This document shows, in pieces, positions 27,798-45,733 of a stretch of 64,000 nt of DNA (position 1 is the first letter of the stretch; each line of letters begins with the position of its first letter). The notes under the pieces were generated by a model. It was not told where the DNA came from, did no database searches, and saw only the letters and a program-made list of their open reading frames with translations. The DNA comes from Amoebophrya sp. A120 (lineage: Eukaryota > Protista > Dinoflagellata), in contig CAJINV010000016.1 in NCBI GenBank assembly GCA_905178155.1, forward strand, positions 1,331,386 through 1,395,385, written 5' to 3'. Both the position numbers and the translations under genes were made by a program.

Positions 27798-29937
27798 TCA
27801 CGCCCCCACGAAGCCCATGTCCGGGGAAACCATCGTCGATGTGTTCCCTACATCAACGCCTTTCTCATTTTGCCACGCCAATTCCGCGTCCTGCAACCGC
27901 ACCTCGCCGCATCCTTCTTCCAATTTCCCGATGTCAAAAACACTCTCGTTAAATTCGTTTTTCAAAGTCAGTTTCACGTAGTCCACGTCCTCCGGCTTCA
28001 CGAAGATCGCCATCCCAATGCCGATATGCATTGCAAGAGTAATATCGCACTCATTGTAGTAATTTTTGCAGTCATGCATGTCAAAACTCTTTCCGAACCT
28101 GAAACGACATTACAAATTCTATTTCTTCTACTTCAAGTTTTCATCTTCTTTCCGAAATTTGTGATGCTATTTGCACAAAGTGCGATACTTTTGCAATGCA
28201 TATCCGCAATTGAACGTCCGCGCCATTTCCATGGGGTCCAACCCGCCGGAGGAGAACAGCCAGTGCAGAATCGGGGGTAAAGTCCAGTTCGCCGCGGAGA
28301 GTTTCGCGTCAATGTTGTCCGGTAGAATTCTCGGGATGTTCTCCAACAGACCCCCGCCGGTGATGTGCGCCGCGGCCAGAATTTTCTCCTCCTGCATGAG
28401 TTTCAGCAGTTGCTTCACGTAGATTTTTGTCGGTAACAGCAAGTAATCGCCCAGTGACATCAAGGGGTCGAAGGGCGCTGGGTCCTGGAACGTGAACGGT
28501 TTCGCGGTCTCCGGGTTCAAAGTGGAAGACACGATTTTCCGTGCTAACGATAATCCGTTGCTGTGGACGCCGGACGAGCCCAAGCCTAAAATGCAAACCC
28601 CCGGTTTGAGTTCGCTCGTTCTCGGCAGAATCTTACTCCTCTCCACAATCCCGACGGAAAACCCAGCGACGTCGTATTCCCCAGGACTGTACAACCCCGG
28701 CATCTCCGCCGTCTCCCCGCCGATCAATGCGCAGTTCGCCTGCTTACACCCGATATCAAATGTAAAAGTGTCTGGGTTTGGAAAAGTGTAGGCTTGTCAT
28801 GCAGATTTTCCATGGCCCATGAGGTCTGGAGTGCGGGACTTAGCATGACAGACTCTGCGAGGTCTCTGCCATGCCTATCCTGCATGAGAAACTCCCCTCC
28901 AACTTGGTCAGAAGTGTACAGCTTTTGGCACTCATGCAACACAGATTTTCGCATGCTTCAGATTTACCATGACAAGTTGGAATCTTCCAGACCCAGACAT
29001 TTTTGCAATTCATGCCCGATCGTCACCCCCTTGATCACTTCCGTCGCTTGCTCGACGGATAACTTCCCGGTCGCGAATATCCTGAGTAAAAACGTCCCCA
29101 CGCCAGAGTTGTAATGCAGATTTGCAAAGACAGGAAGACTTGTAATGCGCATCCCCATGAGAGCCATTTCCAATCGTGTTTTGGAATTTGTGATGCTGTG
29201 AACAGGATGAGCAGATGAATCTGCGATGCGGCTGCACTTGCTGACCTGCACTACACTGCGGAGTGCAACTTGTCATGCGTGACTCACAAAACTCCTAGGT
29301 TTGTGTTGCAAAATCCCCATCCTGACTCTGGTGTGGGGACGTTTTTACTCAGGATAGCGAAGTAATCTAGGAAATACAGCGGTTCCGCACCGTGAACCAA
29401 GCAGTCGTTGACACACATCGCGACCAAATCAATGCCGATCGTGCCGTGCTTGTTCAGATTGTTCGCGATGAGTAACTTCGTCCCCACCCCATCCGTCCCG
29501 GAAACTAGGACTGGGTCCTTGTAGTTCACCGATTTCAAATCGCAGAAGCCGCCAAAGGATAATTCCTTGCCGAATTCGCAGCCCGGTCTTGCCTATCAAA
29601 TGTAAAAATGTCTGGGTCTGGAAGAATTCATGTTTGTCATGTTTGTCTGGCATGACTCTTAAATCTGTCATGCACGTTACGCAAGAGCTCCGCTTTTCAT
29701 TTTCTGTGATGCAGGAACGCAGTTTGTCATGCAGAATAGGCAACACCTAGAAGCTCAGAAACTTGTCATGCTGAGCCAGCATTTGTGGCCTCCCCATCAT
29801 GCGCCACCCAGCATCACAAGTTTCCAGACCCAGACATTTTTACATTTGATATTGCCGTCTGCTTCAAAAACGGTTTGATGTTTTCAACCAACGCATTCCC
29901 GGCGTCGATATCGACCCCCGCCGCTTTGTAGGTCAAT
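27798..29937 (-). CDS. purM: AIR synthetase domain of the fusion
   Basis: [61 protein letters not shown] (after splicing). Confidence 0.96.
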
Positions 29938-44900: not shown

Positions 44901-45733
44901 AGCTCGATGTCGGTCGGGTCCCGTTTCAGATTCTCGGTGTACAAGCTGTAGTAGTAGGAGAGGTCGTTCTCGTCAAAACCAAGGGACTGTTCCTCGGAGA
45001 AAGCTTTCAAAACGGCGATCCCGGCATCCTTTGTACCCGCGGAGAGGACCCGGATGGATTTGACACCGGAGGAAGATGTGGAGGGGGTTGTGGTGTCAGA
45101 GTCGGTCGTCGCTTCAGAAGACGAGCTGGAGAACAGCGTAGCAGCAGCATCTTTGTCCTCAAACTCGTACACACATTCTGTCATGCGGTCGTGGACCAAG
45201 GACTCGAAAAATTTCTTCGCTGCAGCACCATCGCCAGCGCTTGAGGTCTCTGGTGCCTTCACCAGAAACCGTTTCGTCACTTCGATCCGCTCCACATCTG
45301 CTAGCCCGCACCCCTTCGCAATGCTCACCGAGTGCGTGCTCTGCGCGGAGGTGAATTGTTGCCGCGGCCCAACTTCGACGAGTATCCAGGAAAAAACACC
45401 CGTCGCCATCCAATTTGTCATGCATAACACGCATAAAATCCAGTCTTTGTCATGCATAAAATGGATGGGGACGATGGGTTTCTTTCTGCGAATAACGAGG
45501 AAGCTGCTCGTACTACTTCCACTGTTCTTTATCGAAGTTCCTGCACAGTTTGTGATTTGTAGGATTTTGTTCAAAATGTCGTTCGTTTCGTCAATGCCCA
45601 AAACGTGGTAACAGAGTTCAGATTCCAAAATTTCAAATCCGGCGGTGGAGACGGCGTTCTTCTGGGCGAAAGAAATAGGCGGTGCTTCGGCTTTGCGAAA
45701 CAGCTTCAGGGACTTCTTGATGTGCTCCACCAT
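27798..45733 (-). CDS. Pentafunctional de novo purine biosynthesis protein FGAMS-GART-GPAT-GARS-AIRS (PurL-PurN-PurF-PurD-PurM), 16 exons, ~3,314 aa
   Basis: Removing 13 TIR introners (+1 TSD each) and 2 GT-AG introns (41953-42086, 38545-38723) gives a 9,945-nt frame from ATG 45733 to TGA 27798. PurL-PurN, PurF-PurD and PurD-PurM are each joined within single stop-free exons; PurN-PurF join in frame across 39614-39762. Confidence 0.88.
28025..28202. mobile_element. TIR introner, family B, degenerate TSD gccga/tccgc
   Basis: Removal plus 5 nt gives the conserved FNCG|IGM. Confidence 0.9.
28754..29014. mobile_element. TIR introner, family A (right end ATG), TSD cccga
   Basis: Join [19 protein letters not shown]. 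Confidence 0.92.
29078..29356. mobile_element. TIR introner, family C (TATCCTGAGTAAAAACGT.CCCAC.CCAGAGT), TSD gcgaa
   Basis: 279 bp; near-identical copy at 56645-56923; join DYFA|TGKL. Confidence 0.95.
29594..29851. mobile_element. TIR introner, family A, TSD ttgcc
   Basis: Perfect ~30-bp TIR and TSD; join QTA|RPGC. Confidence 0.94.
30035..33510 (-). CDS. purD: GAR synthetase domain of the fusion
   Basis: [66 protein letters not shown] (after splicing), TSGGRVL. Confidence 0.96.
30554..30876. mobile_element. TIR introner, family D (TAT...AAAAATCC.CCCTCCCCATA), TSD catca
   Basis: Homologous to 53554-53875; join QAVM|PLLE. Confidence 0.93.
30920..31069. mobile_element. TIR introner, family B (inverted), TSD tgtaa/tgtac
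   Basis: Splits the PurD signature [11 protein letters not shown]. Confidence 0.93.
31618..33149. mobile_element. 1.5-kb composite introner (family J-like ends) with a nested insertion, TSD gaatg
   Basis: Perfect TSD; join RWNI|PTAEY. Interior ~31760-33105 has degenerate T-tract/A-tract inverted arms, GC-rich blocks and tandem TTTTTCGGCTTCCGAAAATATC units (32285-32615). Confidence 0.9.
33545..39608 (-). CDS. purF: Amidophosphoribosyltransferase (Ntn glutamine amidotransferase + PRTase) domain of the fusion
   Basis: [69 protein letters not shown]. Confidence 0.95.
36300..36850. repeat. Long foldback palindrome built from ~30-bp tandem A-tract/CGCGCG units
   Basis: 36359-36411 is the reverse complement of 36739-36790 (the same peptide [17 protein letters not shown] appears on both strands); centre ~36575. 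Confidence 0.9.
37030..37088 (+). repeat. Tandem duplication of caacatgtggcctccacaagccaaatag
   Basis: Two adjacent identical copies. Confidence 0.85.
38806..38914. mobile_element. Short TIR introner, family H (109 bp), TSD ggatc
   Basis: Join RHGI|RPCFY; homologous to 45383-45494. Confidence 0.92.
39614..39762. mobile_element. TIR introner, family B, TSD ctcgt, immediately before the PurF catalytic Cys codon
   Basis: Perfect TSD; join PKHE|CGIA. Confidence 0.94.
39955..40545 (-). CDS. purN: GAR transformylase domain of the fusion
   Basis: [55 protein letters not shown]. Confidence 0.95.
40790..45733 (-). CDS. purL: FGAM synthetase domain (large-type PurL with glutaminase) of the fusion
   Basis: [78 protein letters not shown]. 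Confidence 0.96.
42850..43093. mobile_element. TIR introner, family K (TATGGCGTTCTCAA.TGTTACA), TSD gtgtg
   Basis: Join GPLHT|PLADC (conserved FGAMS motif). Confidence 0.94.
44488..44649. mobile_element. TIR introner, family J (TAT.CAA..CAAATTTCC.GTAC), TSD tgtag/tgtac
   Basis: Join SAPY|KLTEQ leading into AETHNFP. Confidence 0.9.
45383..45494. mobile_element. Short TIR introner, family H (112 bp), TSD acgag
   Basis: Join SFLV|EVGPR; element+TSD is 117 nt and stop-free, so it is hidden inside ORF 44567-45742. Confidence 0.9.

Follow-up and report, generated by a model that had tools for sequence, protein, structure and literature searches.

The stretch of DNA analysed here (the window) comprises 64,000 nucleotides of contig CAJINV010000016.1 from the marine parasitic dinoflagellate Amoebophrya sp. 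A120. On its minus strand, at 27798..45733, it carries one spliced gene that encodes five enzymes of de novo purine synthesis in a single reading frame, in the order FGAMS-GART-GPAT-GARS-AIRS (steps 4, 3, 1, 2 and 5 of the pathway), and of this we are practically certain. The enzyme of step 1, GPAT, sits in the middle of the chain yet normally needs a free N-terminus, and the chain is therefore likely to cut itself in two.

Read from 45733 to 27798, the minus strand shows a series of open frames with purine-enzyme domains, interrupted by short repeats. Introns were called without the coordinates of a preliminary description of this gene, by scanning for terminal inverted repeats flanked by direct repeats and by inspecting the remaining gaps, with two GT-AG introns in addition. 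Removal of 15 introns in this independent model leaves 16 exons (45733-45495, 45377-44650, 44482-43094, 42844-42087, 41952-39763, 39608-38915, 38800-38724, 38544-38496, 34634-33150, 31612-31070, 30914-30877, 30548-29852, 29588-29357, 29072-29015, 28748-28203 and 28019-27798), which join into 9,945 nt from the ATG at 45733 to the TGA at 27798. The protein has 3,314 residues (361 kDa), and its only stop is the terminal one. The single frame of this length previously proposed is thus reproduced. Retention of 14 of the 15 introns would introduce a stop, intron 1 being in frame and stop-free. It was also correctly stated that three of the four domain junctions lie inside uninterrupted exons: these are FGAMS-GART in exon 5, GPAT-GARS in exon 9 and GARS-AIRS in exon 12. 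At the fourth junction, GART-GPAT, intron 5 separates the codons of Glu1768 and Cys1769, so that the GPAT propeptide is encoded on the GART exon. The spliced model agrees letter for letter with a public protein (P0011) labelled 'unnamed protein product [Amoebophrya sp. A120]'; the gene had been thought easily missed, but the public annotation already has it whole.

On the whole protein, Pfam gives in order FGAR-AT_N, the linker, AIRS_C, PurM_N-like, GATase_5 (1159-1426), Formyl_trans_N (1509-1703), GATase_2/6/7 (1858-2048), GARS_N/A/C (2418-2902), and AIRS with AIRS_C (2989-3279). The motif check over the five domains found 25 of 25, as expected from the complete FGAMS, GART, GPAT, GARS and AIRS motif sets reported earlier, and motifs and Pfam order agree with the further claim of five intact enzymes leading from phosphoribosyl pyrophosphate (PRPP) to aminoimidazole ribonucleotide, with GPAT fused directly to GARS. 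FGAMS (large PurL, step 4; 40789..45733, minus strand, residues 1-1426, exons 1-5) has the N-terminal domain, linker, two PurM-like repeats and class I glutaminase Cys, His and Glu of a large PurL, with Pfam and TIGR01735 matches on exons 3 and 5 and motifs at 335, 575, 1251 and 1380. GART (PurN, step 3; 39958..40542, minus strand, residues 1509-1703, exon 5) has the features of PurN, with Asn1620, His1622 and Asp1664 intact, and scores 134.5 bits against TIGR00639, slightly below the cut-off of 150.1. GARS (PurD, step 2; 30033..33507, minus strand, residues 2418-2902, exons 9-12) consists of GARS_N, ATP-grasp and GARS_C with their motifs. AIRS (PurM, step 5; 27798..29933, minus strand, residues about 2936-3279 followed by a short tail and the stop, exons 12-16) has the N- and C-terminal AIRS domains with their motifs, and no remnant of a C-terminal GART follows it in the A120 protein.

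GPAT (PurF, step 1; 33544..39608, minus strand, residues 1769-2405, exons 6-9) is of the long, Bacteroidota type. It combines the glutaminase and phosphoribosyltransferase folds of PurF, and it retains Cys1, the Arg, Asn and Asp that are conserved in the family, and the motif that binds PRPP. Its glutaminase residues align with those of E. coli PurF, by what we take to be the numbering of that enzyme, and are kept. Sequence matches to solved GPATs reach E values of about 1e-6, and each half of the domain scores far under the TIGR01134 cut-off, as expected for a divergent subfamily. The predicted structure of a homolog, P0007 (predicted local distance difference test score 80, predicted template modelling score 0.56), matches the GPAT structures 1ecf, 1gph and 6lbp with E values of 3e-21 to 2e-19, and its GARS fold matches 7lvo and 2qk4; as a single-chain model it is uninformative on the GPAT-GARS interface. 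Cys2066 is invariant in the 12 aligned GPAT rows, Cys2259 is replaced in several homologs, and a C-terminal Cys pair is absent. Compared with what we assume to be the four Cys ligand positions of the iron-sulfur class of GPAT (B. subtilis, plants, animals), this suggests that the enzyme is probably without a 4Fe-4S cluster.

The linkers between FGAMS and GART (77 residues), GART and GPAT (60) and GARS and AIRS (29) are of low complexity and poorly conserved. The GPAT-GARS linker has about 11 residues, and the distance from motif to motif across it is 37-46 residues in the 29 rows measured. A short linker of conserved length suits a constrained GPAT-GARS geometry, channelling between the two being a proposal only.

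Nine sequencing runs were listed, and the stretch is contained in six of them, none of these on record as RNA. In contigs of two probable RNA runs, introns 3-15 (13 joints) are skipped directly, intron 15 being cut one base off the model with the protein unchanged. The joint of intron 2 is seen as adjacent pieces of one contig, which brings the total to 14 of the 15 splice joints. The joint of intron 1 is absent from the rows shown, where two contigs stop exactly at 45495 with further letters. Contig X1-1 (8,899 nt) runs from 42770 in FGAMS past the stop and bridges all four domain junctions, and none of its 8 listed pieces has a differing letter. In run X5 the depth is even and the introns are retained; none of these joints is seen among its listed rows, and single X5 contigs span 38467-39639 and 39740-42914. 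Contigs are not molecules, and the claim of a single mRNA therefore depends on frame continuity together with the splice joints. The gene contains no spliced-leader relic.

In class II amidotransferases, including GPAT, a short propeptide is cut off autocatalytically to expose the catalytic Cys (PMC9140057, PMC7056826), and the human GPAT structure is also without its propeptide (PMC13421311). In the A120 precursor this Cys is internal residue 1769. Directly before it stands the signature ADDRPKHE (39763..39786, minus strand, residues 1761-1768), so placed that the predicted cleavage site is Glu1768/Cys1769, and with Asp-6, Lys-3, His-2 and Glu-1 of the Bacteroidota-type propeptide kept. The signature is kept selectively: between the A120 protein and P0010, the corresponding protein labelled strain A25, 7 of the 8 residues before the Cys agree, compared with 12 of the 52 residues of the linker next to them (Fisher p = 0.0008) and with 3, 2 and 4 of 8 ahead of the three remaining internal domains. 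Three other homologs (P0002, P0006 and P0007) share 5 of the 8. No Met occurs in the 60-residue GART-GPAT linker of the A120 protein or in the corresponding 19-residue linker of P0002, and in the P0007 model the 52 residues ahead of the cleavage site are disordered.

Bacterial relatives of this GPAT were collected by a two-pattern scan that retained the best 80 of 596 loci, a sample biased to this family; exon 6 alone, used earlier as the query against bacterial genomes, gave no match. All of the best 80 are Bacteroidota except one labelled Chlorobiota. The A120 GPAT is 43-46% identical over the whole domain to the five best bacterial matches, and among the matches listed its closest bacterial relatives appear to be Bacteroidota PurF. 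The sequence His-Glu-Cys-Gly is invariant in 78 of the 80 loci, those with a readable N-terminus, and in 76 of these 78 the propeptide is 8 residues long, position -6 being Asp or Glu and position -3 mostly Lys. It follows that removal of Met alone cannot free the Cys in this family. The long Bacteroidota PurF (about 607-629 residues when mature) shares with A120 the end of the propeptide and an Asn-Phe-Asn variant of the glutaminase motif (76 of 78), and differs in being a stand-alone enzyme whose propeptide has 8 residues. Within 3 kb of PurF in the 80 loci there is no PurL, PurD, PurM or PurC, and there are 8 weak formyltransferase-like matches.

Given the conserved signature and the chemistry of the family, we consider it probable that the chain cleaves itself at Glu1768/Cys1769, giving FGAMS-GART (191.7 kDa) and GPAT-GARS-AIRS (169.4 kDa). 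GPAT would treat the 1,768 residues ahead of it as an overgrown propeptide, and would free its Cys by the autocatalytic cleavage usual in its family. The fusion would then mainly secure 1:1 co-expression, and the GPAT-GARS linker, which would survive cleavage, could keep the unstable phosphoribosylamine near GARS. A permanent, "hard-wired" chain of five domains, as first envisaged, is unlikely, given the autocatalysis of the family and the retention of its propeptide signature at the internal site.

Such a chain is nevertheless the best of the alternatives, though we give it a low probability. In it the protein would remain an uncleaved, pentafunctional chain of 361 kDa, whose GPAT uses either free ammonia, possibly from the FGAMS glutaminase, or the internal Cys. 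The five domains do share one frame, FGAMS does carry a second glutaminase, of class I, and GPATs can use ammonia without the glutaminase site. However, the GPAT Cys, propeptide signature and glutaminase residues are kept in all three of the long fusions (A120, P0010 and P0002), whereas a redundant domain of the same family, the C-terminal GART described below, visibly decays. Self-cleavage itself has points against it: it is deduced from family chemistry and conservation, and the site is a predicted one; the known cases (PMC9140057, PMC7056826) have short propeptides and not a folded leader of 1,768 residues; and conservation beside a domain start could serve a structural role in an uncleaved chain.

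It is less likely again that an internal transcript or start makes a separate GART-GPAT-GARS-AIRS or GPAT-GARS-AIRS protein, the five-domain form being minor. The contigs have a depth of about 4-7 on the 5' part and 10-76 for the long 3' contigs; those of three runs from one sample break at 40734, 40744 and 40770, the first just after an AG, with lower depth upstream; an in-frame ATG lies inside intron 5; and Met1510 stands at the start of GART. All of this speaks for an internal start, and three further points weaken the case for a single five-domain transcript: short-read contigs do not establish single molecules, runs X1-X4 are RNA by guess only, and contig X2-2 continues beyond 27500 for 5.4 kb in the direction of the next gene. 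The two read sets confirmed as RNA, with only 21 and 43 reads placed and almost none on the gene, give no evidence either way. We judge the contig breaks, the intron-5 ATG and the 5.4-kb extension to be 3' bias, a repeat feature and read-through, respectively. Contig X1-1, from another sample, passes 40734 unbroken; the contigs at 40734-40770 overlap by only 8 and 18 nt, like those at a coverage gap, and there is no loose end among those shown. Contig depth is one flat figure, compatible with 3' bias on a 10-kb mRNA. The intron-5 ATG is part of a repeat found elsewhere in the window, and Met1510 is not conserved in P0010 or P0002 and has an out-of-frame ATG upstream. Lastly, merged models are known in the genus (for example g136.t1, of 19,827 nt, in which FGAMS begins only at residue 3366; PMC6482013 supplement), but an artefact of assembly or gene modelling that joined neighbouring genes is extremely improbable here, with three junctions inside exons without a stop, with the single X5 contigs and the spliced contigs described above, and with the same order in P0010 (60% identity) and, with PurC inserted, in P0002.

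With one five-domain gene as the preferred reading, we turn to its relatives. Long proteins that contain this GPAT were sought twice, with 9 and 38 matches. Three fungal rows, in which GPAT stands beside unrelated domains, were set aside. In all 39 remaining rows, which include the A120 protein and P0010, GPAT is followed by GARS, and 38 of the 39 go on into AIRS. Named sources include Chromera velia, Vitrella brassicaformis, Polarella, Effrenium, Pelagodinium, Biecheleria and Durusdinium. The GPAT-GARS fusion is thus not special to this gene, contrary to what had been implied, the same pair being found in Chromera, Vitrella and the core dinoflagellates. Most of these proteins end in GART, and some dinoflagellate forms add a second AIRS. 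Only three of the 39 have FGAMS in front, these being the A120 protein, P0010 (3,354 residues, the same five-domain order) and P0002. The last is from a JGI contig, 5'-partial, with 2,369 residues reading FGAMS(end)-GART-PurC-GPAT-GARS-AIRS-degenerate GART in one frame; by its sequence it is a fusion of six purine enzymes and a dead C-terminal GART, larger than that of A120. The preliminary description knew of no such arrangement elsewhere; this does not hold for the GPAT-GARS-AIRS(-GART) core and does hold, in so far as no description of it was found, for the FGAMS-led form.

Of 33 long proteins found with GART alone as query, three are the FGAMS-led ones and the other 30 are trifunctional forms of animals. 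No FGAMS-GART gene general to dinoflagellates was found, the two being joined in only 1 of the best 150 representatives (P0068, 303 residues), although long proteins are poorly sampled and this absence is weak. The N-terminal GARTs cluster with stand-alone environmental GARTs (Shimodaira-Hasegawa-like approximate likelihood ratio support 100), separately from the C-terminal GARTs, including those of Chromera and Vitrella. The closest relatives of the A120 GART are a cluster of 108 members (P0203), which stand alone, have a hydrophobic N-terminal segment and are 55% identical to it. The catalytic triad of the C-terminal GART is complete in Vitrella and doubtful in Chromera, and the 7 other C-terminal rows have lost it. 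In a quick GPAT tree of 41 rows (21 of 39 eukaryotic, 18 of 78 bacterial and 2 fungal), the Amoebophrya rows and P0002 group with P0001 (support 95).

These relationships suggest that an older GPAT-GARS-AIRS-GART gene, common to Chromera, Vitrella and the core dinoflagellates, may have gained an FGAMS-GART(-PurC) block in front. We infer that FGAMS-GART was acquired in the lineage of Amoebophrya and P0002, and that the new GART replaced the old C-terminal one, which decayed and is lost in Amoebophrya. Some features of the data do not favour this history. On the tree, 2 changes are required to explain the six rows counted as N-terminally extended, so that a single origin is not shown, and three of the six (P0001, P0006 and P0007) may be truncated records; the fungal root lies on very long branches and is unreliable, and the tree does not give the direction of transfer.

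The comparison with known systems is instructive. Trifunctional GART (GARS-AIRS-GART, in animals and some protists) and the fungal and amoebozoan Ade5,7 have GARS and AIRS in the same order as A120. Compared with trifunctional GART, the A120 protein has GPAT ahead of GARS, has FGAMS-GART ahead of GPAT and has no GART after AIRS, which places it outside that class; Vitrella P0026 and Chromera P0005 do have GART after AIRS, like trifunctional GART. The fusion GPAT-GARS-AIRS-GART(-AIRS) of Chromera, Vitrella and core dinoflagellates (P0003-P0005, P0012-P0039) shares with A120 the Bacteroidota-type GPAT, the short GPAT-GARS linker and the GARS-AIRS order. In that fusion, however, GPAT comes first (of the 32 rows that have the motif, 20 have the Cys at 9-12), FGAMS is not joined to it, and GART is C-terminal, with its triad lost in the 4 dinoflagellate-type rows aligned. 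The AROM-AroC and AroG-tryptophan synthase genes of Amoebophrya (PMC6482013) are also whole-pathway fusions in the same genus, but belong to another pathway and have no internal N-terminal-nucleophile domain to force cleavage. The mammalian purinosome also gathers early purine enzymes, but as a reversible, non-covalent association of six separate proteins (PMC10912719); in A120 the linkage is genetic, is covalent at the level of the precursor, covers steps 1-5 only, and is known from sequence alone.

In a third Amoebophrya strain, gene g136.t1 has FGAMS at 3366-4657 and a formyltransferase at 4754-4939 (PMC6482013 supplement). About 1,670 residues remain after the formyltransferase, compared with 1,611 after GART in A120, and we infer from these entries that g136.t1 has further domains there. 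According to the pathway table of that supplement, FGAMS is g136.t1 and the enzymes GART, GPAT, AIRS and GARS were not found, which is what a top-hit annotation of such a fusion would give. The PMC7789003 supplement scores inosine monophosphate production from PRPP as 'D' for both strains, and the fusion is not mentioned there. For these five enzymes, a 2021 paper (PMC8449271) speaks of 'up to three components' in one open reading frame. No description of the five-enzyme fusion or of the four-domain core was found in the literature searched, subscription journals being mostly outside its coverage, and the fusion is apparently undescribed among multifunctional purine enzymes. With five enzymes, and six in P0002, it is the largest purine-pathway fusion found, the published maximum for these steps being three. 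The fusion is also of interest for the metabolism of parasites, in that four enzymes listed as missing in another Amoebophrya strain may sit in such a fusion.

An N-terminal-nucleophile enzyme in the interior of a polyprotein leads us to expect a self-cleavage of an unusual kind, and a bolder proposal, which we hold only tentatively, can be built on this. GPAT would be the internal protease of a self-processing precursor of five enzymes (six in P0002). AIRS forms dimers. GPAT forms tetramers (PMC7056826), and it is a speculation that the two, being on one chain, could cross-link into larger assemblies. The freed GPAT-GARS-AIRS chains, joined in this way, would form a permanent scaffold, to which FGAMS-GART is bound and within which phosphoribosylamine is channelled. 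This would amount to a purinosome encoded in the genome, and its GPAT-GARS core would be common to chromerids and dinoflagellates. Kinetic data support a transfer of phosphoribosylamine from PurF to PurD, but no stable complex has been caught (PMC10912719). A natural GPAT-GARS fusion with a short linker in culturable algae (Chromera, Symbiodiniaceae) makes this transfer directly testable.

The introns are of interest in their own right. Of the 15, 13 have terminal inverted repeats and a flanking direct repeat, and the other two are GT-AG. Eleven of these 13 start with TAT, 10 have a perfect 5-nt direct repeat, and several recur in the window. Amoebophrya introners are described as having terminal inverted repeats (with a TAT start in A120) and direct repeats of 3-5 nt, as forming repeated families and as being spliced (PMC7789003), a definition that the 13 introns fit. 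Intron 5 (39609..39762, minus strand) is an introner from a repeated family that has 5 more full-length copies in the window. Intron 8 (34635..38495, minus strand) is GC-rich and has 3,861 nt, with an 8-nt terminal inverted repeat (TTA start), a 5-nt direct repeat and a 570-nt palindrome (36290-36859). It is removed exactly in the contigs, contains no Pfam family in the three frames examined, and is far longer than the 40-1000 nt analysed for introners in PMC7789003. Intron 9 (31613..33149, minus strand) is introner-like, with 1,537 nt and internal A/T-rich repeats. Two introner copies, at 29078-29356 and 56645-56923, are 96% identical over 279 nt, which suggests recent spread.

It is worth adding some observations on other fusions. 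A second AIRS follows a degenerate GART in P0014, P0016, P0036, P0047 and other dinoflagellate forms of 2,100-2,200 residues. This AIRS presumably resembles the Bacteroidota-type PurM, and would then be a second gene from the same bacterial group. Two metagenomic proteins, P0100 (FGAMS-GARS-GART, 1,747 residues) and P0189 (FGAMS-GARS, 1,564 residues), are unreported-looking fusions.

Downstream of the purine gene, at about 21200-25800 on the minus strand, lies a gene for the auxiliary subunit of N-terminal acetyltransferase A; an ortholog of this subunit precedes g136.t1 in the file of the third strain (PMC6482013 supplement), and here the gene adjoins the purine gene. The contig that extends 5.4 kb past 27500 towards it suggests read-through or overlapping transcripts. 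Upstream, at 46851-50900 and beyond on the minus strand, is a long and highly covered gene with no Pfam match in its 1,350-residue frame. Contigs of this gene reach as far as 46300-46349, poly-T read ends occur at 46261, beside a genomic A run, and the gene therefore stops before the purine gene. Further away, frames at 4960-8367 (minus strand) have nuclease-like motifs and no Pfam match, with what we take to be a resemblance to PD-(D/E)XK nucleases, and a frame at 13856-15670 (minus strand) has an NAD(P)/FAD-binding Rossmann match and is amine-oxidase-like.

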